Below are positions 14,805 through 42,721 of a DNA stretch of 64,000 bases, one piece after another (position 1 is the stretch's first letter; every line of letters begins with the position of its first letter). Under the pieces are notes generated by a model that saw only the letters and a program-made list of their open reading frames with translations, was not told the DNA's origin and ran no database searches. A program made the position numbers and the translations under genes. Source of the stretch: Ruminococcus sp. UBA4240 (lineage in GTDB: Bacteria; Bacillota; Clostridia; Oscillospirales; Ruminococcaceae); the NCBI GenBank assembly GCA_002395525.1, contig DGXE01000024.1:18692-82691 (forward strand). The letters run 5' to 3'.

Positions 14805-15965
14805 TCATTCATCCCCCAGAGGAAATACCTCATCATGGGCTATCTCTGCAATGTGTTCGGTAGCGCCCTTTGCATCGTCTATGCTGCCGCAGCCGTCAAC
14901 CCCGTTGGACGTCCACATACAAAGCCCGTTCCAGCCGTTGTTGTAGGCGTTTTCGTAGTCCTCATAGCAGGTGCGCCCGCTTTCACTTAGCACCGCAAAT
15001 TCACCGATGACAGCGGGCTTTGTGTGTGTAAGCCCGAACTCTGCGGGGGTAGTCTCAAAGGGGTACCCCATGTAGGAATACTGCCAGTAGTAGTAGTGGG
15101 GGCAGTCATAGTCAAGGTAGGCGCTTTCCCCCGCAAGGGAGCCCAAGTACTCATCGGAGAAGTAGTTTCCGTCGTACTTGTCGGAGGTGTACTTTATCAT
15201 GCCCAGCCCCACGGTCACAAGCTCATCGGAGTTGTCGTGTATGGCTGCGGCGCACCTTGCAAAGAAGGTGCAGAGCACATCCCAGTCTATCTGGCCGCAC
15301 TCGGCGTTTTCCTTTATCCAGTCGGGCTCGTTGCACAGGTCTATGCTCCACAGGTAGGGGTTTTTGCCGTATCTCTCGGTAAAGGGCAGCACATAGCCGT
15401 CTATGTAGGACTGTGTGCCCTCCTCGCTGCTGACCATAGTGCGGAAGTTCTCGTAGCCCACGTTGCTGTCCTTGAAGTGGTCAAAGGACAAAAGGGTCGC
15501 CATGATGTAGATGTGGTGCTTTTCCGCCAGCTCAAAGAGCTTGTCCAGATCCTTCCAGTGCTTGCCGGAAACGGACTGGAGGATCCCGTCCTTGTCCACC
15601 TTCAGAGTGGATGTGCCGGAACAGTTTATCCATATGCGGGAGGCGTTCACGCCGCTTTCGTGCAGCTTTGCGAAGTGCTCGTCCCAGAAGGTCTCGTTGA
15701 ATGCGCCCCCGAAGTCGTTCCATTTGTCCCAGGGGGTGTTGACCCCGTTTATGAAAAGGGTCTTGCCGTCCACGGTGAAGCGGTTTCCGTCAACTCTGAT
15801 GACAGTTTTGTCATAGTCGGCGGAGGAGGCGGCTGTCTCGGCAGTCCCGGCGGCGGAGGTGCTTGTCTCCTGTACGTCCGCAGGAGCAGTATTGCAGCCT
15901 GCCATGCCTGTCACAGTGACAACGGCGCATACAGCCGCAGCCGCTCTTTTAATTGTGGACTTCAT
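14805..15965 (-). CDS. lipoprotein glycoside hydrolase, clan GH-A (GH5-like, possibly beta-mannanase)
   Basis: Lipobox VTGMAGC. FINGVNTPWDKWNDFG, DLCNEPDW (acid/base Glu) and AVIGEFA (nucleophile Glu). Confidence 0.65.
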   Translation of the reverse strand: MKSTIKRAAAAVCAVVTVTGMAGCNTAPADVQETSTSAAGTAETAASSADYDKTVIRVDGNRFTVDGKTLFINGVNTPWDKWNDFGGAFNETFWDEHFAKLHESGVNASRIWINCSGTSTLKVDKDGILQSVSGKHWKDLDKLFELAEKHHIYIMATLLSFDHFKDSNVGYENFRTMVSSEEGTQSYIDGYVLPFTERYGKNPYLWSIDLCNEPDWIKENAECGQIDWDVLCTFFARCAAAIHDNSDELVTVGLGMIKYTSDKYDGNYFSDEYLGSLAGESAYLDYDCPHYYYWQYSYMGYPFETTPAEFGLTHTKPAVIGEFAVLSESGRTCYEDYENAYNNGWNGLCMWTSNGVDGCGSIDDAKGATEHIAEIAHDEVFPLGDE

Positions 15966-15996
15966 ATGTCGCTCCTTTGTGCCATAAAGGTGGCTG

Positions 15997-16170
15997 TTAG
16001 TCTATTCTATCGCCAAGGTTTAATTCCAAAAGCTCCGGGACAGCATATCTTACACGTTCTATCAAAGCATCAAGTGAGCCGGATTCAAGAACAAGCCCGG
16101 GAACATCCCTGCTTGTAGCGACCCAGACGGCAGCTTCGCTGTCCCACAGCATATCTATTCTGTAATTCAT
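15997..16170 (-). CDS. DUF1902-like small protein (HicB-N-terminal-like fold)
   Basis: Manual translation gives a 57-aa product, MNYRIDMLWDSEAAVWVATSRDVPGLVLESGSLDALIERVRYAVPELLELNLGDRID. A GAGGGA RBS precedes it. It is too short for the ORF track. Confidence 0.5.
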   Translation of the reverse strand: MNYRIDMLWDSEAAVWVATSRDVPGLVLESGSLDALIERVRYAVPELLELNLGDRID

Positions 16171-16309
16171 TGTCTATCCCTCGATTTTAAATACTTGTGC
16201 TCCTGTGCTGTCTATTCTGCTTACGCATTTTCAATATCTCTCCCCGGTTCGTCACCGCTCAGATTGAAAATGGATTTCGTTCTCCGAAAGGAAACGGATG
16301 AGATTCCTC

Positions 16310-17269
16310 TCAGAAATACTTGTGTCCCCTTGTAAGCCTCAGCAGAAGCTCCAATCGCACGCTGTCACGGTATTCCGGGCGCACCATGTAGTAGACGTAG
16401 GTCTCCAGTATGTTTATATCCGGGACACTGCGCCCCTCTATCTTGAAATTGCGGTACCCCATGGGAACATATCTTTCGTATATGGCACCGGGGGAGATGT
16501 GCAGCGGGGAATCCGTGGTCTGATAAAGGCTTTTCAGCATACAGTCGCACATGAAGGGCTCCGGGTCGCACATCTGATGATGCTCTTTCAGGTAGTCCGC
16601 ACACTTTATCTGGGAGCGGCCTATGGAGCGGTAGTGCTCCCCTCTGCGGCGGCAGTGAGGGGTGCAGCAGGGGTTTATGAGCAGCTCGCACTTCTCCTTG
16701 TGGGGGAGATCTTCGAGCAGGTCAAAGTCATTGTTGAAATTGTAGTCCAGCACCACAAGGGAGTAGTTCCGCTCCAGCTCTTTTATAAGGTCTTCACGGC
16801 TCTCTATCTGCTTGCAGGTGGAAGAGGTTATCTTCATGCCGGGGAAGTTTCTGCGGATGTGCTCCTCCAAATAGGGGAGAAAGACAATGGCTTCGTTAAG
16901 CCCGTTGTCCGCCGCCTTCATGACTGCATTGCAGAAGGGGTCATTCAGGTGCTTTCTTTCAAGGACAGGGTTTGTGAGGGTAAAGCGGCAGGGTATGCCA
17001 CGGTCATTGAACTGTTTGAGCATCTCCCGCATGACACGTCCTTCCATAGGTCCCTGTATAAAGCGCCCCCCGTTCCAGATCATGTTGGGGAACGCCCCGT
17101 ATACCGAGCCTATGGAGATGTTGTCATAAAACTCCTCCGGATGCTTTGCGAGATAGTCCGCAAGGATGATATTCAGCTTGAAATGCCGTACAAAGTCCGG
17201 CAGATGGAAATATATCTTATCCATATCCTGTCCACTAAAACTATCACGGCGCTGCGGATGACAGCTCAT
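16310..17269 (-). CDS. conserved hypothetical Cys-rich protein directly downstream of atpC
   Basis: 319 aa (304 aa if the start is MDKIYF at 17224). Contains a CCTPHCRRRGEHY...C...CDPEPFMCDC cluster. No family was recognised. Confidence 0.5.
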   Translation of the reverse strand: MSCHPQRRDSFSGQDMDKIYFHLPDFVRHFKLNIILADYLAKHPEEFYDNISIGSVYGAFPNMIWNGGRFIQGPMEGRVMREMLKQFNDRGIPCRFTLTNPVLERKHLNDPFCNAVMKAADNGLNEAIVFLPYLEEHIRRNFPGMKITSSTCKQIESREDLIKELERNYSLVVLDYNFNNDFDLLEDLPHKEKCELLINPCCTPHCRRRGEHYRSIGRSQIKCADYLKEHHQMCDPEPFMCDCMLKSLYQTTDSPLHISPGAIYERYVPMGYRNFKIEGRSVPDINILETYVYYMVRPEYRDSVRLELLLRLTRGHKYF

Positions 17270-17679
17270 CCGTTATTGCCGTTGTTTTTAACGCTCAGCC
17301 TGTTGAGGGCACGTTTCAGCTTCATCTCCGCAAGGTCGATGTCATGCTGATTTGCCTTTTCTTCAAGTCGTCTGCGGGCATCCTCCTCGGAGCGGCGTGC
17401 CCAGTTCTCGTCGATCTCATCAGCCCATTCAGCCGCATCCACGAATATGCGCACACGGTTGTAGCCCACCTTGACTATGCCGCCGGAAACTGCCGCAACA
17501 CGCAGCTCTCCCTCTCCCTGACGCACCTTCAGCGCCCCGGGAGGAAGTGCGGCAACAAGGGCTATGTGTCCCGCAAGTATGCCGATGTCGCCCTCGGTGG
17601 AGCGCACTATGACCTCTGTCGCCTCATCATCGAAAAACACCTTTTCCGGGGTGAGCACAGTCAGCTTGAAAGGGGTCAT
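17266..17679 (-). CDS. atpC: F1 ATP synthase epsilon subunit
   Basis: 137 aa, LTVLTPEKVFFDDEATEVIVRSTEGDIGILAGH pattern, last gene of the atp cluster. Confidence 0.9.
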   Translation of the reverse strand: MTPFKLTVLTPEKVFFDDEATEVIVRSTEGDIGILAGHIALVAALPPGALKVRQGEGELRVAAVSGGIVKVGYNRVRIFVDAAEWADEIDENWARRSEEDARRRLEEKANQHDIDLAEMKLKRALNRLSVKNNGNNG

Positions 17680-17680
17680 A

Positions 17681-19105
<1,425 letters not shown>

Positions 19106-33318: not shown

Positions 33319-34023
33319 TCAGTTGCTCTTGGGGAGATAGGGGATGATAGCGCCTGCAAGTGCGCTTGCGGGCATAGTCTGGAGCCAGATGCGCCCCGGG
33401 CCTGTAACACGGGTGTTGAAAAGGCCTTCGCCGCCCAGCAGAGCGTTGCCTACGCCGGCAACTGTCTCTATGTCAACAGAGCAGGTGGCATCCATTGCTG
33501 CAAGATAGCCTGTGTCTATGAGCATGGACTGACCGGGGGCAAGGTCGTAGTTGTATACGCCGCCGTTTATCTCAAGGAATACCATGCCGGTGCCGGTGAA
33601 CTTCTGCATGATGAAGCCTTCGCCGCCGAAGAAGCCTGCACCCACCTTCTTCTGGAAGAAAAGCTCCATGTTCACGCCCTGTGAGTTTGCAAGGTATGCC
33701 TGCTTCTGAGCTACGATGGAATTGCCGCCGTTTAGCTGTATGCACAGGATGTCACCGGGGAATGTGGATGCGAATGCTATCTCACCGGGGCCTCCCTGTG
33801 AGGTGTAGGTGTTCCTGAACATGGACTCGCCTGTCAGGGCAGATTTTGCCAGACCGCCCAGTGCGCCCAGCAGACCACCCTTGCCGCCGCCTGAGAGGCC
33901 TGTCTGCATCTGCATATTGGGGGTCATCCAGGACATGGCGCCTTTCTGGCACTCTATGCTCTCGCCTGCATCAAGCTTGCAAACCAGAGCGCAAAGGGGC
34001 TTGTTGATAACTTCGTATTGCAT
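33319..34023 (-). CDS. AIM24/TIGR00266 (DUF124) family protein
   Basis: 234 aa. MQYEVINKPLCALVCKLDAGESIECQKGAMSWM and Gly-rich beta repeats are typical of the family. Confidence 0.7.
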   Translation of the reverse strand: MQYEVINKPLCALVCKLDAGESIECQKGAMSWMTPNMQMQTGLSGGGKGGLLGALGGLAKSALTGESMFRNTYTSQGGPGEIAFASTFPGDILCIQLNGGNSIVAQKQAYLANSQGVNMELFFQKKVGAGFFGGEGFIMQKFTGTGMVFLEINGGVYNYDLAPGQSMLIDTGYLAAMDATCSVDIETVAGVGNALLGGEGLFNTRVTGPGRIWLQTMPASALAGAIIPYLPKSN

Positions 34024-34252
34024 GATTATTCCTCCGTTTCTGCGAATGTTTTCGCTGTATTGATATTATCATATTATGGCGCCGATGTCAATATTTTTTT
34101 GCACTTTTGTTATGAAAATGTTTTTTTGCCTGTTCCCGGGCACTATCTCCGGAAAAGCAAGGAATGTGGGGGCATTGTGCATAATGCAGTAAAATACATT
34201 CCGGAGGCTGTCATATTTTTCGTTGCAGTTCGGTTACAATTTGGTACAGGAC

Positions 34253-34281
34253 TTGAAATATTTGCAATTTGCGTTTATAAT
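34253..34281 (+). promoter_or_regulatory. sigma-A type promoter of the 34467-39555 operon
   Basis: TTGAAA (34253-34258), 17-nt spacer, TATAAT (34276-34281). This leaves a leader of about 180 nt. Confidence 0.55.
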
Positions 34282-34466
34282 AGATGTGTATATTCGGTAA
34301 GTGTCGGCTGATGTCGGCAAAGCACCGGCTTATGCCGGTACAGACTCCAAATCACTTTACAGTGAATGTCAATTTATTTTGACGTTCACCAGCAGACCTC
34401 ACAAGCGCACAGGCTTTCAGCCCGCCTCGGCGGCTGATATGCTCTGCGCCCCAAGGTGGTGTATAG

Positions 34467-35513
34467 ATGTTCAAAAAGAAAGAAAAGCTCCCTGTGACCG
34501 GGGCTAAGGCGGAAGACAAGGGAGCCGTTAAGGTAGGCTTAAAGCCTGCCCCCCTACAGCCCGGTGCGAAGGGCGCTGACAAGGCTCTCTCAGAGCAGGA
34601 GGGCAAAAAGAAAAGCAAGCCCCGGGAGAAATTCCGGGAAAAGCGAAGCGTGGCAGACCCCAACACACCCTTTGCAAGGGCGCTGCTCATACCCAGCATT
34701 TTAGGTGTCATCACCTTTTTTGTAGCACCCTTCCTCATAGTTATCTACTACTCCTTCCTTGACAACCCCATTGCCAAGGAATTCGTGGGATTTTCCAACT
34801 ACGGTGCGGTGCTCGGCAACAGCGCCTTCCAGACAGCCGCCAAGAATACCCTGATACTCTCTGCGGTTTCCGTGCCCGCTGCGGTGGTGTTCTCACTGCT
34901 GCTGGCTCTGCTTCTGGATGCGAAGATACCCATGAAGAGTATGTTCCGCACCTTCTTCCTGTCTCCCATGATGGTGCCTGTTGCCTCCATCGTGCTCATA
35001 TGGCAGGTAATATTCCACTACAACGGCTCCCTCAACTATATGCTGGCACAGCTCTTCGATTTGGCGCCCATTGACTGGATGAAGTCCGACAAGAGCCTTA
35101 TGGTGGTAAGTGTGCTGTTTCTGTGGAAAAACCTGGGGTACAACATGATACTGTTCATGACAGCCCTCTCAAACATCCCCAAGGATCTCATCGAAGTGGC
35201 AAGGCTGGAGGGCGCAGGGGGCATATGGGTGCTCACTCACCTGAAGCTCAGGTACATTTCCCCCACGGTGGTGTTTGTCACCATACTCTCTCTCATAAAC
35301 TCCTTCAAGCTGTTCAGAGAGGTGTATCTGCTGACGGGGGACTATCCCTATCAGAGCCTGTATCTGCTGCAGCACTTCATGAACAACACATTCCGTTCCC
35401 TTGACTATCAGAAGTTGTCCTCCGCCGCCCTTATCATGGCGCTGGTGATGATATTCATCATCGGACTGCTGGTGCTGACGGAGAACGTATTCGGGGAGGA
35501 TATTGAGGAATGA
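34467..35513 (+). CDS. carbohydrate-type ABC transporter permease (MalF/BPD_transp_1) with a Lys/Glu-rich N-terminal extension of about 75 aa
   Basis: 348 aa, 6 TM segments, EAA-loop region (EVARLEGAGGIWVLTHLKL). Confidence 0.8.
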   Translation: MFKKKEKLPVTGAKAEDKGAVKVGLKPAPLQPGAKGADKALSEQEGKKKSKPREKFREKRSVADPNTPFARALLIPSILGVITFFVAPFLIVIYYSFLDNPIAKEFVGFSNYGAVLGNSAFQTAAKNTLILSAVSVPAAVVFSLLLALLLDAKIPMKSMFRTFFLSPMMVPVASIVLIWQVIFHYNGSLNYMLAQLFDLAPIDWMKSDKSLMVVSVLFLWKNLGYNMILFMTALSNIPKDLIEVARLEGAGGIWVLTHLKLRYISPTVVFVTILSLINSFKLFREVYLLTGDYPYQSLYLLQHFMNNTFRSLDYQKLSSAALIMALVMIFIIGLLVLTENVFGEDIEE

Positions 35514-36421
35514 CAAAAAAGAAAAAGAAGCGTTTCTCCCTGTCAAAGACCTGGTCGAATATCCTGCTCGGCATAGTCACCGTGTTCACAGCCATATCAG
35601 CGGTGATATTCCTGCTCCCCACGGTGCTGACCATAACCAACTCATTCATGGCGCAGTCGGAGATAAACGCCAACTACGGCATGATCTTCAACACCGTCAC
35701 CGGGAACAAGACCTTCATAGCAGAGAAGGTAAACCTTAAATTCATCCCCGATATGGTGTCCTTCGGCCAGTACGGCACCTTCCTGCTGAAAAGCCCGGAC
35801 TACCTGCTGAAATTCTGGAATTCCGTCATCTACACCGTGCCCATCGTCATATTCCAGATACTTGTGGCACTGGGGGCATCCTATTCCTTTGCACGGCTCA
35901 CGGGAAAGATAAAGGAGATCATATTCTTCATCTACATCGTGGTAATGCTCATGCCCTACCAGGTAACGCTGGTGCCCAACTACCTTGTGGCTGACAAGCT
36001 GGGGATACTGGGCACACGCCTTTCCATCATACTGCCGGGCATATTCTCCCCCTTTGCGGTGTACCTGCTGACAAAGGCCATGAAGCGCATACCCAAAGCC
36101 TTTTCAGAGGCGGCTAAGCTGGACGGGGCAAGCGAATTCAGGATATTCACCGATATATATATGCCTATGGTAAGGGGCTCCATATTCTCGGTAATGATCC
36201 TCATCTTCATCGACTACTGGAACATGGTGGAGCAGCCCATGGTGCTGCTTTCCGACGAGGGGATGTACCCCCTGAGCGTATTCCTGTCAAAGATCAATTC
36301 CGGAGATACAGGCCTTGCCTTTGCGGCGGCGGTGGTGTACATGATACCCTCCATGCTGCTCTTCCTCTACGGGGAGGATGCCCTTGTGGAAGGCATCTCC
36401 GGCTCGGCAACGCTGAAATAG
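35510..36421 (+). CDS. carbohydrate-type ABC transporter permease (MalG-like)
   Basis: 303 aa, EAA loop EAAKLDGASEFRIFTDIYMP, ATGA overlap with the upstream permease gene. Confidence 0.8.
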   Translation: MTKKKKKRFSLSKTWSNILLGIVTVFTAISAVIFLLPTVLTITNSFMAQSEINANYGMIFNTVTGNKTFIAEKVNLKFIPDMVSFGQYGTFLLKSPDYLLKFWNSVIYTVPIVIFQILVALGASYSFARLTGKIKEIIFFIYIVVMLMPYQVTLVPNYLVADKLGILGTRLSIILPGIFSPFAVYLLTKAMKRIPKAFSEAAKLDGASEFRIFTDIYMPMVRGSIFSVMILIFIDYWNMVEQPMVLLSDEGMYPLSVFLSKINSGDTGLAFAAAVVYMIPSMLLFLYGEDALVEGISGSATLK

Positions 36422-36478
36422 CCGCTTAAAGGACACGGGGCACGACCCCCTTCAACTGATTCTAACGGAGGTATTGCA

Positions 36479-38395
36479 ATGGAACAGGAACAGGCCAACC
36501 GCAGAAAAGATATTATAAAGAATATTCTTATAATATTCCTTATCATAATGCTGCTGCTGACATTCTTCTCAAATACCATACTCAACTACTCCCTGCCCCA
36601 GGTCTCGGCGGTGTATGCCACCCAGGCCACCATTTCCGAGCAGATAAGGGGCAGCGGGAGCGTGCAGCCTGCACAGACCTATGAGGTGAAGATAAACGAG
36701 GATCGTGAGGTCAAGAGCGTGCTCGTGCGTGTGGGAGACACCATCAAGGCGGGAGATACCATCGCCATACTTGAGGATGTGGACAATTCCACCGCCGTAC
36801 AGGAGGCAAGGGACAAGCTGGCAGACCTGGAGCTTGACTACCGCAAGGCGCTGCTGGACTCAAACTCCACCTCCTACAGCTCAGACATCCTTGCCATAGA
36901 GCGGGCGGAGCAGGAGCTGGAAAAGCTGAAGAAGCAGCGTGAGGAGGCTGTCAAGTATGAGGCCGAATCCAAGGAGGCAGCCACCGATGTGCGCACAGCC
37001 ACTGCTGATGTGGACAAGCTGAAGGCTGAAAAGGAAAAGTACAACACTATGCTCTCCTCCGCAAGCACAGAGGATATGCTGGATCTCACCGATGCCCACT
37101 ACAAGAAGATACAGGCGGCAAAGCAGGCTGTTACCGATGCGGAGAAGGCATTTGCCGATGCCCAGGCCGCATACAAGAAATTCTCATCAGGCATAGACAC
37201 CACTGATATAGACAGCACTCTCATCGCAAAGCGCAACGAGGCTGACAAGCTGCGCACGGAGAACAACAACCTGTACACCAAGATAGCCAATGCGGAGGCG
37301 GGCGCAGATACATCGAGCTATTCGGAGACCATTGCCAACAATATCACCACCATCAACAACCTGAACCGTGAGATCTCAAACCTTATGCACAAGCAGTCCC
37401 TGACTGCCGGCGACAAGAAAAAGCTCGAAGACCTTGAAAAGGCACAGGAAAAGGCTGAGAAGGCCGTCACCGATGCCAAGGATGCCCAGGCTCAGGCTAT
37501 AAGAGAGGTAAAGCTGGAGATAAAGGGCTGGATAGACGACGTGGACAGAAGGCTTGAAGCCGCTAATGGAAAGCTCACCGACGTTACCAACCGCAAGGAC
37601 GACATCGCAGGCCAGGGCATATCCAAGGTGTCCGATATAGACAGCAAGATAGAGAGCCAGGAAGCCTCAATACAGAAGCTCAAGGATGACCTTCACAACA
37701 AGCAGATCACGGATTCCACCGCTGCATCAAAGACACAGCTTGACCTGGAATCAAAGAAGAATGCGGTGGACAGGCAGCAGAGAGCCCTTGACAAGCTCCT
37801 TGCCGGCACCGATAAGGAGATAGTCTCCAAGTCCGGCGGCGTGGTGGCAAGCATAAACATATCCGCAGGCAGCAAGGCTGAGGCGGGCAAGGTAGTAGCC
37901 ACCGTGAATGTAACGGATCTGGGGTACCTCATTGAGATGCCCGTAAAGGCGGAGCAGGCCAAGAAGATCCGTGTGGGGGACATTGCAGAAGTAGTGTCCT
38001 GGTACGGCTCCAACATCTCCGCTACCGTCAAGGAGATCAAGGCGGACAGCAACAACCCCCAGTCACAGAAGATACTCGTGTTTGAGATAACCGGCGATGA
38101 CATAACCGTTGGACAGAACCTTACCCTGCAAATGGGCAGCAAGGGTCAGCAGTACTCCGTTACCGTGCCCAACAACGCCATCAGGGAGGACTCAAACGGC
38201 AAATACGTGCTGGTGATGGAATCAAAGTCCTCACCCCTTGGCAACAGGTACAAGGCAGCCCGCTACCCTGTTGAGGTGCTGGCAAAGGATGAGAAGAACT
38301 CCGCAGTATCGGGTCTTTCCGGCAATGAGTTCGTCATCACCACCTCCACAAAGCCCATAAACGCAGGTGCTCAGGTAAGACCTGCGGAGGACTGA
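36479..38395 (+). CDS. HlyD/membrane-fusion-protein-like adaptor with an exceptionally long coiled coil
   Basis: 638 aa. N-terminal TM segment, lipoyl-like half motif (VLVRVGDTIKAGDTIAILED), about 330 aa of heptad-rich charged helix, then the second lipoyl half and a beta-barrel (GGVVASINISAGSKAEAGKVVATV...). Confidence 0.65.
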   Translation: MEQEQANRRKDIIKNILIIFLIIMLLLTFFSNTILNYSLPQVSAVYATQATISEQIRGSGSVQPAQTYEVKINEDREVKSVLVRVGDTIKAGDTIAILEDVDNSTAVQEARDKLADLELDYRKALLDSNSTSYSSDILAIERAEQELEKLKKQREEAVKYEAESKEAATDVRTATADVDKLKAEKEKYNTMLSSASTEDMLDLTDAHYKKIQAAKQAVTDAEKAFADAQAAYKKFSSGIDTTDIDSTLIAKRNEADKLRTENNNLYTKIANAEAGADTSSYSETIANNITTINNLNREISNLMHKQSLTAGDKKKLEDLEKAQEKAEKAVTDAKDAQAQAIREVKLEIKGWIDDVDRRLEAANGKLTDVTNRKDDIAGQGISKVSDIDSKIESQEASIQKLKDDLHNKQITDSTAASKTQLDLESKKNAVDRQQRALDKLLAGTDKEIVSKSGGVVASINISAGSKAEAGKVVATVNVTDLGYLIEMPVKAEQAKKIRVGDIAEVVSWYGSNISATVKEIKADSNNPQSQKILVFEITGDDITVGQNLTLQMGSKGQQYSVTVPNNAIREDSNGKYVLVMESKSSPLGNRYKAARYPVEVLAKDEKNSAVSGLSGNEFVITTSTKPINAGAQVRPAED

Positions 38396-38429
38396 TAAGA
38401 GCGATACCACTCCGTAAGACTGATGGCAG

Positions 38430-38450
38430 TCTCTAACTTCTAACCTTTCT
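38430..38450. repeat. solo heptamer array
   Basis: TCTCTAA CTTCTAA CCTTTCT. This is the same heptamer family as elements 1-4 but on one side only. Confidence 0.5.
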
Positions 38451-38460
38451 GGTGTTTTCT

Positions 38461-39555
38461 ATGTCAAAGAAAGCTAACAAACTGACAAAACTTGATATTG
38501 TGTGCATAGTCATAGATGTGATCGCAGCAATTGCAGTGGGGATCATCCTTGGGGCTATAAACAGCATCAAGGGCAGCACCGGCGCAGACAGCGCCGCAAG
38601 TGCCTGGGGCAACGGCGAGAGCCGCTATGCACAGGCGGCAGTCTATTTCACCTATCTGTCGGGCTTTGATATAAACGGTGCCCATTCCATGCACAGCGCC
38701 GTGGAGCAGTACCTTGCCTCACAGGTGGATCTGAAAAAGGCGGAGCACCGTGTCTGGGTAGACTGCGGGTACGGTGAATCCTCAGGCAGCGCCCAGGGCA
38801 CTTTGGGCAGCACGGATGCAGTGCTGTGCGGCACATGGGGGGATTACTTCCTCTTTCACCCGGGGGATTTCATCTCAGGCAGCATTTATGAGGACAACGA
38901 TATGAACCTTGATGTGTGCGTGCTTGACAACACAGCCTCCTGGATACTGTTCGGCGGCCTTGACACGGCGGGTATGACTGTCACCATAAATGACAGGGCT
39001 TACCTGGTGGTGGGGGTCATTGACCAGGGGATGAAGACAAATTCCGACTTTGCCGCCTACGGCAGCAAGCCCCGCATATATATGCCCTATCAGTCCCTGA
39101 AAAACCTGAAGGAAGCCGCTTCCATGACCTCCTACGAGATATGCATCCCCTATGTGCTGGACGGCTATGCACTGGAAGCCATCAAGAAGGGCGTTTCCGC
39201 AGATGAGAGCACCTACATGGCAGTGGATGAATCGGGGCGGTTCGACCTGGTAAAGCTGGTGAGGAGCTTCCCCGGCATATTCAACAACGTTATGGTGGCA
39301 GGGGGCATAGTCTACCCCTGGTATGAAAACGTCCTGCGGGCAGCGGAGATAAAGTGTGTCATACTGGCATTCATGGGAGCTGTGATACTGATAATCGGCA
39401 TCATCGTGTTCGTGTACCTGTTCTTCCGCTTCACCAAGGCATTCGCTGCCTTCGTCAAGTGGATAAAGAGCAAGTTTGACGCATCCTATCAGCGGCGCAT
39501 ATCCAAGAAATACTACAAGACCCACCCCCGCCCGAAGGAGAACCCACAGACCTGA
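38461..39555 (+). CDS. bitopic membrane protein with a MacB-type periplasmic core domain but no FtsX TM bundle
   Basis: N-terminal TM segment, an extracytoplasmic domain of about 270 aa (VLDNTASWILFGGLDTAGMTVTINDRAYLVVGVIDQG is MacB_PCD-like), one C-terminal TM segment and a basic tail. The ORF track gives a GTG start at 38452. Confidence 0.5.
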   Translation: MSKKANKLTKLDIVCIVIDVIAAIAVGIILGAINSIKGSTGADSAASAWGNGESRYAQAAVYFTYLSGFDINGAHSMHSAVEQYLASQVDLKKAEHRVWVDCGYGESSGSAQGTLGSTDAVLCGTWGDYFLFHPGDFISGSIYEDNDMNLDVCVLDNTASWILFGGLDTAGMTVTINDRAYLVVGVIDQGMKTNSDFAAYGSKPRIYMPYQSLKNLKEAASMTSYEICIPYVLDGYALEAIKKGVSADESTYMAVDESGRFDLVKLVRSFPGIFNNVMVAGGIVYPWYENVLRAAEIKCVILAFMGAVILIIGIIVFVYLFFRFTKAFAAFVKWIKSKFDASYQRRISKKYYKTHPRPKENPQT

Positions 39556-39578
39556 GGCGGGAAGCAAGGGCAGAAAAC

Positions 39579-39617
39579 AGCCATCTCATCCATATGGTGA
39601 GATGGCTTGATTTTTTG
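39579..39617 (+). terminator. rho-independent terminator
   Basis: AGCCATCTCA / TGAGATGGCT stem followed by TGATTTTTTG. Confidence 0.75.
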
Positions 39618-39820
39618 TGCGGTTTAAGATTGGTTTAAGGTTCGTGTGCTATTCTCATAGTCAAAGGGTGACCCCCCACCCTTTGATAGTGATATCATCT
39701 TTTTCCTTTTTTCCTTTTTTCCTTTTTCTCCCCCATGAAGCGGCCGGGCATCACAGGATGCTGCGGCTGCTTTATTTTTGCAGACTCAAGGCAGAAAGAG
39801 GAGAAAAAGTATGCTTGCAA

Positions 39821-40625
39821 TTGCGGAAATAAAGCAGGAAAGAGGTGGCAAACCAATATCAAATACCAGGTGTAGAGGCTTATTTTACCCAAAGCTATCA
39901 AAAACTGCCAATTTCACGGACGATAGAGAACATTACTCATTAAGCCCAAGGAAAATGGTGCGTATACAAGCCATTCATAGTGTTCCCGTGAAATTGGGGG
40001 CATTCGCGAAAACAAAGCAAGCAAAGAGGAAATAAAGCTATATCGAATGCATTTGCGGAAATAAAGCAAGCAAAGAGGAAGCAAAGCAATATCGAACGCC
40101 TTTGCGAAAATAAAACAGGAAAAGAGGGAGTAAAGCAACGTCGAATGCATTTGCGGAAATAAAGCAGGAAAGAGGTGGCAAACCAATATCAAATACCAAG
40201 TGTAGAAGTTTATTTTACCCAAAGCCATCAAAAACTGCCAATTTCACGGAGTAGGAGGATTATACTTGCCATAGACTAATAAGAAAATGGGGAGAAATTA
40301 AACAATCAATACTTCACCAGCAGTGAAATTGGGGGCATTCGCAAAAACAAAGCAAGCAAAGAGGTGGCAAATCAATATCAAATACCAGGTGTAGAAGTTT
40401 ATTTTACCCAAAGCCATCAAAAACTGCCAATTTCACGGACGATAGAGAACATTATTCTCATTAAGCCCAAGGAAATTGGTGCGTATATTCAAGCCATTCA
40501 TAATGTTCCCGTGAAATTGGGGGCATTCGCGGAAATAAAGCAAGCAAAGAGAAAACAAAGCTATATCGAATGCATTTGCGGAAATAAAGCAAGCAAAGAG
40601 GAAACAAAGCAATATCGAACGCCAT
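39821..40625. repeat. nested noncoding repeat array (100-bp unit A x3, 88-bp unit B x2, degenerate tandem units of about 49 bp, three conserved long-loop hairpins)
   Basis: Unit A lies at 39821-39920, 40151-40250 and (partial) 40361-40439. Unit B lies at 39921-40008 and 40440-40531. CCAATTTCACGG / CCGTGAAATTGG inverted pairs lie at 39908/39986, 40238/40323 and 40427/40509. Confidence 0.9.
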
Positions 40626-40662
40626 TGTAACCAAATATTGGCAAAAAAATGCCCGTAAACAC

Positions 40663-40691
40663 TTGAAATGCCCCTGCTTGTGTGCTATAAT
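40663..40691 (+). promoter_or_regulatory. sigma-A type promoter of the 40742 gene
   Basis: TTGAAA (40663-40668), 17-nt spacer, TATAAT (40686-40691). Confidence 0.6.
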
Positions 40692-40741
40692 CAAAATAAG
40701 GATGATACCACCTCGCAAAAAGGAAAAAGGAGTGATTTTGA

Positions 40742-42721
40742 ATGAAAAACGCAACAGCAAAAAGAGCGGCAGCCGCTCTTGCAGCTCTGCTCATGACTGT
40801 GTCCGCAGGTACGGGGGTACTTGCCACAGAGTACTATTATGAGCCTACACACCTGGCGGGCTACTACTACAACAGCAAAACAGGCTTCTGGTACGATGAC
40901 TACAACCAGGCAGTAGCTGCGGCTATGGATCTGGGGGGCACGGATGCCGATGTGCATTACATAAAGCCGGCAGTTGATTCAAGCTCGGTGTGCAATGCCA
41001 CATATCAGTGGTACAACGGCAACACCAAAAAGTATTACCGCACCGAGACGGATGCCTGGAACGCAGATATACAGGCTGAGACCTACAATGCATGGGAGCG
41101 CCTCAATGTTGATTCTTCCACTAAGGTGAGTGCAAACTATCCCTGGTACAATTCCAAGACTAACAGATACTACAGATCCCAGTCCGATGCGGCAAAGGCC
41201 TCCGGAGGGGACTATTCCGGCGTTGTCTATGCCTTTGACGACACCACCTACAATACCACCTGCACTGCGGATTTCCCCTGGTACAACACCTATACCAACA
41301 GGTACTACAAGACCCAGTCCGCCGCAGCTCAGGCTGATACAAGGGGCACTGTCTACAATGCGTGGACCAACAGCGACTATTCCGCCAATGTAAGCTCCAC
41401 CTACCCCTGGTACAATACTGCCACAGGCAGATACTACCGCACGGAGCAGGCCGCAAGATCCGCATCTGCCGGAGGCACTGTCACCTATGCGTACAGCGCT
41501 GCCACCTCCAACAGGGCAAGCGCCACATATCCCTGGTACAGTGCGCTGACAAAGCTCTACTACAAGACCTATCAGGCAGCCCTTGCCGCATCCGGCAACA
41601 ACGATGCCTATGTATCACAGCAGTACACTGCCACATCAAAGAGTGCAAGCTCCACCTATCCCTGGTACAGCTCCTACACCAACCTGTACTACAAGACCAA
41701 GGAAGATGCCGTGGCTGCATCCCTTTACAGCGAGGGCTACGTATCCTACGCCTATTACCAGAGCTCAAAGAGCGCCAGCGCTACCTATCCCTGGTACAGC
41801 AACATGACAGGGCTGTACTACAAGTCCTATTCGGATGCCCTCAACGCCTCCGGCGGCAGGGAATCCGCAGTTTCACAGAAGTATTTTGCCACATCCAATT
41901 CCGTGAGCCAGACCTATCCCTGGTACTCATCCTACACGAAGAAGTACTACAAGACCCAGAACGATGCCATCAACGCTTCAAACGGCAACGCAGGCTATGT
42001 TTCCTACGCATACAGCAATGTGGCATACTCCAACAGTGTAAGCAAGACCTATCCCTGGTACAGCAGCGTTACAAGGCGCTACTACAAGACCTATGATGAT
42101 GCCCTTTCCGTATCCAACGGCAATCCTTCCTATGTAAGCATGGCATACAGCTCAGGCACATCCTCAACGACCACACGCACAACCACCTCCGTATCCTCCG
42201 GCACGCCCTATATCAACGGCCTCAAGAGCTACAACGGCTGGACAAAGGTAGCATCCTACCTGAGAGGACATACGGGCACCATATATGTGCGCATGAACGG
42301 GGCAACATCCGTTCCCTCCAGTGTATTCTCCGCAATGAAGGGACGCAACATCACCGCCGTGTTCATACTTTCAAACGGCATAAGATGGACAGTAAACGGC
42401 AGGAATGTTGGCACAGCAAGGACTGTTGACGTTTACTCCGCCTCCACAAAGGCCATACCTTCGAGCGCTGTACGCAAGGTATCCTACGGCTCGGTGGGCA
42501 CAGCACAGGTGCTTGCAGGCAGCCCTGATACATCCTTTGGCTTTACGGGCAAGATAACCGTAAAGCTGAACAAGTCCCGTGCAGGCAGGAGAGTAGTAGT
42601 TTACCGCTACAGCACCGTAACACGCAAGCTGTACAGCAACTCCACCACATCTGTTTCCTCCACAGGTCATGTGACCTTCTCCGCATCAAAGGGCGGCTAT
42701 TATCTCATAGTCATAAAGTAA
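40742..42721 (+). CDS. secreted protein with 9-10 YPWY(N/S)xxTxxYY(K/R)T repeats and a C-terminal beta-rich domain
   Basis: 659 aa. Signal peptide MKNATAKRAAAALAALLMTVSAGTGVLA. Repeats have a period of about 42 aa from about aa 85 to 470. A Ser/Thr linker follows, then a domain of about 170 aa of unknown type. Confidence 0.8.
   Translation: MKNATAKRAAAALAALLMTVSAGTGVLATEYYYEPTHLAGYYYNSKTGFWYDDYNQAVAAAMDLGGTDADVHYIKPAVDSSSVCNATYQWYNGNTKKYYRTETDAWNADIQAETYNAWERLNVDSSTKVSANYPWYNSKTNRYYRSQSDAAKASGGDYSGVVYAFDDTTYNTTCTADFPWYNTYTNRYYKTQSAAAQADTRGTVYNAWTNSDYSANVSSTYPWYNTATGRYYRTEQAARSASAGGTVTYAYSAATSNRASATYPWYSALTKLYYKTYQAALAASGNNDAYVSQQYTATSKSASSTYPWYSSYTNLYYKTKEDAVAASLYSEGYVSYAYYQSSKSASATYPWYSNMTGLYYKSYSDALNASGGRESAVSQKYFATSNSVSQTYPWYSSYTKKYYKTQNDAINASNGNAGYVSYAYSNVAYSNSVSKTYPWYSSVTRRYYKTYDDALSVSNGNPSYVSMAYSSGTSSTTTRTTTSVSSGTPYINGLKSYNGWTKVASYLRGHTGTIYVRMNGATSVPSSVFSAMKGRNITAVFILSNGIRWTVNGRNVGTARTVDVYSASTKAIPSSAVRKVSYGSVGTAQVLAGSPDTSFGFTGKITVKLNKSRAGRRVVVYRYSTVTRKLYSNSTTSVSSTGHVTFSASKGGYYLIVIK

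Follow-up and report, generated by a model that had tools for sequence, protein, structure and literature searches.

A conserved four-gene cassette of Clostridia combines sugar-type ABC permeases with a giant MacA-like adaptor and a MacB-type periplasmic core protein that lacks the FtsX domain

Introduction

Why does a pair of importer-type sugar permeases share an operon with two proteins of the kinds known from exporters? The question is raised by a locus in a 64,000-nucleotide (nt) stretch of the genome of Ruminococcus sp. UBA4240 (GenBank assembly GCA_002395525.1, contig DGXE01000024.1, positions 18,692 to 82,691 of the forward strand; the whole stretch is hereafter the window), in which four genes, here named G1 to G4, lie closely packed on the plus strand. 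G1 (34467–35513; 348 amino acids [aa]) encodes a MalF/UgpA/SugA-like permease, the transmembrane domain (TMD) subunit of a type I ATP-binding cassette (ABC) importer, and G2 (35510–36421; 303 aa) a MalG/UgpE/AlgM2-like permease. G3 (36479–38395; 638 aa) encodes a membrane-anchored MacA/YknX-like adaptor of the membrane fusion protein (MFP) type, and G4 (38452–39555; 367 aa) a protein with two transmembrane (TM) segments and a MacB-type periplasmic core domain (PCD); for G4, an alternative ATG at 38461 agrees with a database protein of 364 aa that is 99% identical.

The initial annotation of this DNA had taken the importer-type permeases, the MFP, and the MacB PCD protein for one unit, in an arrangement not known to be characterized. 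The comparative analysis reported here agrees on both points: the unit is conserved in all 67 loci compared, and full-text searches of the literature brought up no account of an importer that has MFP and PCD subunits. Two leads from the literature were discarded, because xloEFG of C. bescii (PMC8579813) is a different locus and the “MacB” text matches in PMC12838199 are strain names.

Results

The four genes are conserved as a unit

Relatives of the locus were collected by scanning genome contigs with a profile of G4, which yielded 80 loci from named records; a scan with the single G4 protein had given no confirmed relatives. The host is placed in the genus Huintestinicola (family Oscillospiraceae), and it is this genus that is meant below by same-genus genomes and loci. 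The order and strand G1-G2-G3-G4 were identical in 18 of 18 fetched loci (tblastn) and in each of the 67 loci, out of the 80, that offered at least 2 kb of sequence upstream of G3. The carriers include Huintestinicola, other Oscillospiraceae, and Lachnospiraceae, among them Acetatifactor, Roseburia, Lachnoclostridium, and Avilachnospira. The flanking genes are unrelated between loci; three assemblies, for example, share the four genes and have unrelated surroundings. The synteny search that the initial annotation had proposed thus does not bear out a chance juxtaposition, and we reject it on the strength of the 67 loci and their unrelated surroundings.

Identity to the window proteins is highest for the two permeases (55–74% for G2 and, across the 80 loci, 54–71% for G1), lower for G3 (29–51% over full-length matches), and lowest for G4 (23–41%). 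The same order holds for the mean pairwise identities, which are 62–66% for G1 and G2 (G2, at 66%, being the most conserved), 37% for G3, and 31% for G4. Between the four genes, the matrices of pairwise identity correlate at r = 0.79–0.86, as expected for a unit inherited together. G4 is a single-copy gene in 21 of 24 same-genus genomes, the three genomes without it being 80–86% complete. In an even sample of the class Clostridia, the cassette was present in 21 of 399 genomes, representing 6 of 219 genera and 4 families, always in one copy.

G1 and G2 form an importer-type permease pair

The permeases had been described at the outset as MalF/MalG-type subunits with EAA loops, and domain matches, named relatives, and solved structures all concur. 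Both match BPD_transp_1 (G1, E = 3e-13 and 50.3 bits; G2, E = 5e-13 and 49.7 bits; Pfam cut-off, 26.4 bits), and the EAA loops can be read in the sequences as EVARLEGAG in G1 and the canonical EAAKLDGAS in G2. The closest named relatives are UgpA, GlcT, and MalF for G1 and GlcU, UgpE, and MalG for G2, and the nearest solved structures are SugA, MalF, and AlgM1 for the former and AlgM2, SugB, and MalG for the latter. G1 and G2 together therefore supply the two EAA loop-bearing BPD_transp_1 subunits by which CUT1 importers are recognized.

The unusual Lys/Glu-rich N-terminal extension previously reported for G1 is genuine inasmuch as the open reading frame (ORF) starts there, behind a good Shine-Dalgarno sequence (AAGGTGG), but it varies between lineages and does not belong to the system as such: in relatives, the alignment starts only at residue ~20–74, mostly at 30–70, and the length of G1 among them ranges from 266 to 435 aa.

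G4 is the TM1-PCD-TM2 portion of MacB

G4 matches MacB_PCD only (E = 3e-8; 34.6 bits against a cut-off of 27), and domain searches gave no match to the FtsX domain (PF02687) in this protein. A hydropathy scan placed its two TM segments at residues ~16–34 and ~303–321. In the AlphaFold2 model, built from 36 sequences with a predicted local distance difference test (pLDDT) score of 91.8, a helix (residues 13–43) is followed by a mixed alpha/beta domain (59–280) and a continuous helix (290–357), beyond which lies the C-terminus; the long C-terminal helix comprises the stalk, TM2, and a cytoplasmic tail. The top Foldseek matches of this model were the MacB periplasmic domain (3ftj; target TM-score 0.64) and full-length MacB (5gko and 5lil), with further matches to Spr0695 (5xu1) and the YknZ ectodomain (5f9q; 0.69). 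The model and these matches identify G4 as the TM1-PCD-TM2 portion of MacB, without TM3 and TM4, the coupling helices, or the ATPase. The absence of the FtsX bundle, which the initial annotation had pointed out, is thereby borne out by both the domain content and the model, which ends after a single helix. Set beside type VII exporters, G4 has the PCD between TM1 and TM2 and lacks the FtsX-type four-helix TMD with its coupling helices; it also lacks a dedicated MacB/FtsE-type ATPase, none being fused to it and the ATPase encoded after G4 in several relatives being MalK-like (see below).

G4 is not a frameshifted or decayed MacB. In a profile search of 1.84 billion representative proteins, its family comprised 613 clusters (at 50% identity) with E ≤ 1e-30, nearly all of 330–480 aa and matching end to end, and nearly all homologs have an intact reading frame. 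Lengths within the family are mostly 330–400 aa, the relatives found in a database protein search (350–404 aa) conserve the C-terminal helix, and each of the locus copies examined ends after the second helix. The junction between the PCD and the stalk helix is conserved as well (P289, E292, N293, and R296).

G3 is an MFP with a giant helical insert

G3 matches HlyD_3, RND_mfp, and the two halves of a split lipoyl domain; the HlyD_3 and Biotin_lipoyl matches lie above their cut-offs, and that to RND_mfp, at 67 bits, lies below its cut-off of 94.9. A single N-terminal TM segment (residues 12–30; hydropathy scan) is followed by the split lipoyl domain with a helical insert of ~350 aa, a beta-barrel, and membrane-proximal domains, which is the domain plan of an MFP. 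G3 is free of proline from residue 65 to 487, and 355 aa separate L98 from G454, the conserved anchor residues that flank the lipoyl halves, a distance close to the ~330 aa first estimated for this giant insert. Across 31 family members, the insert ranges from 165 to 491 aa, with a median of 359. A profile of the same 31 proteins identified MacA (5nik_D) as the best relative in the Protein Data Bank (PDB), with the match split into two pieces (query residues 7–180 and 360–476 against MacA residues 2–178 and 96–214), from which it follows that the insert of G3 is about three times as long as that of MacA. Judging from its composition, the insert probably forms a helical hairpin. The residues of the TM segment and its juxtamembrane flank that are invariant in the family include F20, L27, T28, F30, S31, N32, T33, and N36, and this invariance suggests contacts within the membrane.

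An exporter partner, which would be expected for an MFP, is not among the linked genes: in all 67 loci, the transporter genes next to G3 are of the importer type only. A match to Peptidase_M23 was dismissed, as it is sub-threshold (E = 0.05) and its residues 78–105 coincide with the lipoyl match; G3 has no hydrolase domain.

The probable ATPase is of the MalK type and encoded elsewhere in this genome

In four relatives (loci L083, L094, L096, and L100; tblastn), a gene for a MalK-like ATPase directly follows G4, and the protein from L083 carries the ABC_tran, OB_MalK, and TOBE_2 domains. The initial annotation had noted that no ATPase accompanies the four genes, which is correct for the operon but not for the genome, and its suggestion of a shared MsmK-like ATPase fits both the fifth gene of these relatives and the two MalK/MsmX-type genes present in trans in this genome. 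On the window contig, the only ABC_tran match lies ~15 kb farther on than the operon, and none adjoins G4 downstream. Both MalK/MsmX-type genes are broken at contig ends. The start of contig C37 (in reverse complement, ending in ...YVTHDQTEAM) and the start of contig C9 share 15 nt across which the reading frame continues, yielding one full MalK-type gene, and a second copy without its N-terminus lies at the end of contig C67. The two paralogs break the assembly at a common conserved stretch. The CUT1-type ATPase of this system is accordingly available in trans, both genes being candidates for the partner of G1 and G2. Sharing of MsmK between sugar importers has been described in Clostridia (PMC12838199) and more generally (PMC7658222).

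A giant sugar-class binding protein accompanies the cassette

Neither a substrate-binding protein (SBP) gene nor an ATPase gene lies within the window operon, and no SBP-like sequence was found downstream of G4 in this contig. Most loci outside Huintestinicola, in turn, contain a co-directional ORF of 750–870 aa that immediately follows G4 or precedes G1. Nine of these ORFs were scanned, and in eight the C-terminal half matches SBP_bac_1 or SBP_bac_8; six of the eight exceed the Pfam cut-off. Among the 52 loci with at least 2.5 kb of sequence on both sides of the cassette, a giant SBP gene adjoins it in 43 (downstream in 35, upstream in 11, and on both sides in 3), and the nine loci without one all belong to Huintestinicola. 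In most genomes, G3 and G4 are flanked by the permease genes on one side and by the SBP or ATPase gene on the other, which speaks for their being subunits of the same machine and against a chance neighborhood.

The giant SBPs carry a signal peptide and a lipobox cysteine and are thus lipoproteins. In an AlphaFold2 model (pLDDT 84.7), an all-beta N-terminal half of ~27 strands is joined to the SBP half. Structurally, the latter comes closest to CbpC of C. thermocellum, Lmo0181, maltose-binding protein, and YesO; the Foldseek search used the whole model, and its matches were dominated by the SBP half. For the N-terminal half, there were only sub-threshold matches to the SGL, Kelch, and NHL propeller families.

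A search of the genome for an orphan SBP, as the initial annotation had recommended, located the ortholog on contig C11 (positions 15540–17960, minus strand; 806 aa). It is 32–34% identical, over its full length, to the cassette-adjacent copies of same-genus genomes; giant SBPs within the genus are ~36–39% identical to each other. The giant SBP was found in 23 of 24 same-genus genomes and was absent from all 16 genomes that represented other families of the order, a pattern that mirrors that of G4 except for one weak partial G4 match, in genome G034. It is present in one to seven copies per genome, compared with a single-copy translocator. Most Huintestinicola genomes show the rearrangement that has left the window operon without an SBP gene; the earlier statement that the system has no SBP holds for this operon, but a dedicated giant SBP exists in trans, and the sugar-class SBP expected of a CUT1 importer is present outside the operon.

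A tally of Pfam families in 103 flanking proteins from 34 diverse loci showed only the SBP and ABC_tran families to recur; among these proteins, no carbohydrate-active enzyme (CAZyme) or glycoside hydrolase and no sugar regulator recurs. The gene divergent from the SBP gene on contig C11 (18358–20130) begins with ...RAYYLSMEFL, a start typical of alpha-glucan (glycogen/maltodextrin) phosphorylases. If it is a phosphorylase gene, it may be a hint at the substrate or a coincidence. Two other CUT1 loci of this genome, C7:11908–12726 and C37:13451–14305, contain SBP reading frames that are likewise oversized (979 and 1078 aa), and enlarged binding proteins may be common in this organism. The similarity of a stretch of ~85 aa at C9:23827–24096 to the giant SBPs is limited to their C-terminal end (30–40% identity); the stretch may be a fragment of a gene or else a distant paralog.

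Operon boundaries, leader, and surroundings

G1 and G2 overlap by 4 nt, and the gaps between G2 and G3 and between G3 and G4 measure 57 and 56 nt; G3, like G1, has a good Shine-Dalgarno sequence. The four genes had been reported as tightly packed, co-oriented, and bracketed by a promoter and a terminator, and a consensus scan together with the ORF coordinates gives the same picture. The predicted sigma-70-type promoter (34253–34281, plus strand; TTGAAA-17-TATAAT) has 11 of 12 consensus matches. The intrinsic terminator (39579–39617, plus strand) consists of a 12-bp stem (39579–39607) with 6 GC pairs and a 5-nt loop, followed by a T-run. The non-coding gap upstream of G1 measures 443 nt, in line with the ~440 nt given previously.

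When the upstream regions of nine same-genus loci are aligned, the promoter proves conserved in its −10 hexamer, and a 14-nt block, TACAATTTGGTACA (34235–34248, plus strand), immediately upstream of the −35 hexamer, is nearly invariant. The block occurs exactly once in the whole genome and is a candidate site for an activator or repressor. Co-regulation of the trans-encoded SBP gene through this motif was considered and rejected, since the motif was not found upstream of the gene on contig C11.

The operon leader (34282–34466, plus strand; ~185 nt) is strongly structured: its RNA fold has a z-score of −3.2, none of 200 shuffled sequences folds as well, and the last stem covers part of the Shine-Dalgarno sequence. 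A search of Rfam with positions 33900–40800, leader included, gave no match at E ≤ 1. The leaders of relatives are ~40–60 nt long, most of the 185-nt leader being missing from the alignment there, and the genome holds no second copy. We therefore read most of it as a local insertion of ~130 nt, specific to this genome and not a feature of the system, and reject a riboswitch or other known RNA, given the lack of an Rfam match and the absence of most of the leader from relatives.

Beyond the terminator, an ORF-poor region of 1.1 kb (39560–40741) contains three promoter-like sites on the minus strand (TTGGCA-18-TAAAAT, at 39911, 40241, and 40430), whose likeness implies repeated units. It is followed by a gene (40742–42721) for a secreted protein of 659 aa with about ten YPWY(N/S)...YY(K/R)T repeats, which has its own strong promoter (40663–40691; 11 of 12 matches, with an extended −10 TG).

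Discussion

Comparison with known systems

CUT1 importers, such as MalFGK2-MalE of E. coli, LpqY-SugABC of mycobacteria, AlgM1M2SS-AlgQ2 of Sphingomonas, and the MsmX/MsmK-sharing systems of Firmicutes, have in common with the system described here a pair of EAA loop-bearing BPD_transp_1 permeases, an SBP lipoprotein of the sugar type, and a MalK-type ATPase that has OB/TOBE domains and is often encoded in trans and shared. In contrast to them, the present system adds MFP and PCD-only subunits within the operon, its SBP is about twice the normal size and has a beta-propeller-like N-terminal domain, and linked CAZymes or a sugar regulator are lacking. With MacAB-TolC of Gram-negative bacteria and the YknXYZ and Spr0693-0694-0695 systems of Gram-positive bacteria, all type VII exporters, it shares the MacA/YknX domain plan of G3 and, in the ectodomain of G4, the PCD fold placed between two stalk helices as in MacB and YknZ. 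Unlike these exporters, the system lacks TM3/TM4 (the FtsX domain) and the coupling helices in G4 as well as a MacB-type ATPase; the only linked ATPase is of the MalK type, the G3 hairpin is about three times that of MacA, and the partner TMDs have the importer fold. FtsEX and its coiled-coil partners (PcsB, EnvC, and CwlO) likewise pair an extracytoplasmic fold of the MacB-PCD class with a long coiled-coil protein, and by analogy a transmission of force across the membrane as in FtsEX is conceivable; however, the present system has neither FtsE nor FtsX, and its G3 has no hydrolase domain. What is new, on the reading preferred below, is a CUT1 importer with a conserved accessory pair, and the odds that it stands for a new class of architecture are considerable.

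A wall-spanning accessory of a sugar importer?

On balance, we lean toward the view that G1–G4 form the conserved membrane and wall core of a single SBP-dependent CUT1-type ABC machine with two dedicated extracytoplasmic accessories. G1 and G2 would be a MalFG-type heterodimer energized by a MalK/MsmX-type ATPase encoded elsewhere, and the giant lipoprotein, with its beta-propeller-like part and sugar-type binding domain, would deliver the substrate. Since characterized systems that combine such TMDs with an SBP and a nucleotide-binding domain are all importers, and since the SBP fold is of the sugar class, we infer that a carbohydrate, probably an oligosaccharide or glycan, is carried inward. 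The other two proteins, G3 and G4, would be dedicated accessories derived from a MacAB/YknXYZ-type system, of which G4 has kept TM1-PCD-TM2 and G3 is the matching adaptor. We infer a physical complex of these parts, in which G3 may oligomerize on the G4 ectodomains by analogy with MacA6-MacB2 and Spr0693-0695, with its helical hairpins reaching into the peptidoglycan, or through it, as a tube or strut. If the insert is unbroken and forms a single hairpin, the tube would be ~25 nm long (355 residues/2 × 0.15 nm; ~12–37 nm across the family), which, measured against Gram-positive walls, should be enough to cross that of the host, a member of the Oscillospiraceae presumed to be a monoderm. The tube or strut might then guide the substrate to the binding protein and permease or hold these in place. 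G4 lacks the elements for contact with an ATPase, so any movement would have to come from G1 and G2. A wall-spanning scaffold that feeds or gates a sugar importer, one of the options named in the initial annotation, is thus the leading hypothesis.

Several observations count against this proposal. We know of no importer that uses an MFP or a MacB PCD, which leaves the role assigned to G3 and G4 without precedent. Oligosaccharides normally diffuse through peptidoglycan, so that the need for a conduit is not obvious. The G3 insert holds several Gly/Ser-rich breaks and may consequently be segmented and shorter than 25 nm. The lack of a recurrent glycoside hydrolase or sugar regulator is unusual for a polysaccharide-utilization transporter, and the distribution of the cassette is patchy, with a single copy per genome.

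A bolder version, which we hold possible but rather doubtful, sees here a distinct class of ABC machine of monoderm Clostridia in which a MalFGK2-type importer core is physically joined to a motor-less MacB fragment and a hexameric adaptor, with a tube of 12–37 nm that traverses the peptidoglycan. Through this tube, long glycans would pass inward to the permease after capture on the outside of the wall, perhaps by the propeller-SBP lipoproteins; alternatively, the core would be re-used as a motor for outward mechanotransmission.

Alternative explanations

The same parts could be arranged as a mechanotransmission or expulsion machine, in which the MalFGK2-like unit is a motor and not a pore and its ATP-driven movements pass through the TM1/TM2 stalk of G4 to the PCD and the G3 tube. 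The outcome would be expulsion through the wall, as in MacAB, of material on the outer membrane face, or control of an extracellular activity, as in FtsEX, with the propeller-SBP serving as loader or sensor. G4 has kept exactly the mechanotransmission elements of MacB, namely, the TM1/TM2 stalk helices and the PCD, with a conserved junction between them; the known MFP/PCD systems all act outward; and no sugar-catabolic genes are linked to the cassette. Against this stand the uniform importer function of the characterized systems with BPD_transp_1 subunits, a MalK-type ATPase, and an SBP, the sugar-binding fold of the SBP half, and the presence in several genomes of two or more giant SBPs per single translocator, which is typical of importers. 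G4, moreover, has no coupling helix and no known contact with G1 and G2, and we regard a machine of this kind as unlikely, if well worth keeping in view. Nor need G3 and G4 form a conduit if they act as a gate, shield, or assembly factor, fencing the importer and its lipoprotein within the wall, holding open a peptidoglycan cavity for the ~800-aa SBP, or limiting the access of phages or bacteriocins. The extracytoplasmic parts (G3, G4, and the SBP) evolve much faster than G1 and G2, as the identities given above attest, which fits surface exposure, and the hairpin varies severalfold in length among the family members. Fast evolution of exposed domains would fit a conduit equally, however, and positive evidence for a gate or shield is lacking, which makes these variants improbable in our estimation.

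Taken by itself, the window, with no SBP, ATPase, or FtsX domain in sight, could suggest a fortuitous set of genes or a frameshifted MacB remnant next to a decayed ATPase. This is contradicted by the retention of the cassette at every locus compared, by the usual position of G3 and G4 between the permeases and the SBP or ATPase gene, and by the many full-length, nearly always intact relatives of G4; downstream of G4, there is neither SBP-like sequence nor an ABC_tran match that could represent such decay. We give this explanation hardly any credence.

Significance

Some consequences concern annotation: proteins of the G4 type are labeled “ABC transporter permease” although they have no permease domain, and “orphan” sugar permeases of the G1/G2 kind have a dedicated SBP elsewhere in the genome. 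If the importer reading is correct, an importer that always carries MFP and MacB periplasmic domains would widen the roles of these textbook exporter parts. Under the bolder version, no earlier importer would have depended on an MFP, and the system would be the Gram-positive analog, running inward, of the tripartite envelope-spanning systems. The hypothesis is testable, as at least one host, Huintestinicola butyrica, is in culture. The G4/cassette family is large and confined to gut and rumen Clostridia, where it is relevant to fiber and glycan turnover, and the system, if it works as proposed, would offer a concrete handle on the passage of large nutrients through the thick Gram-positive wall to transporters in the membrane.

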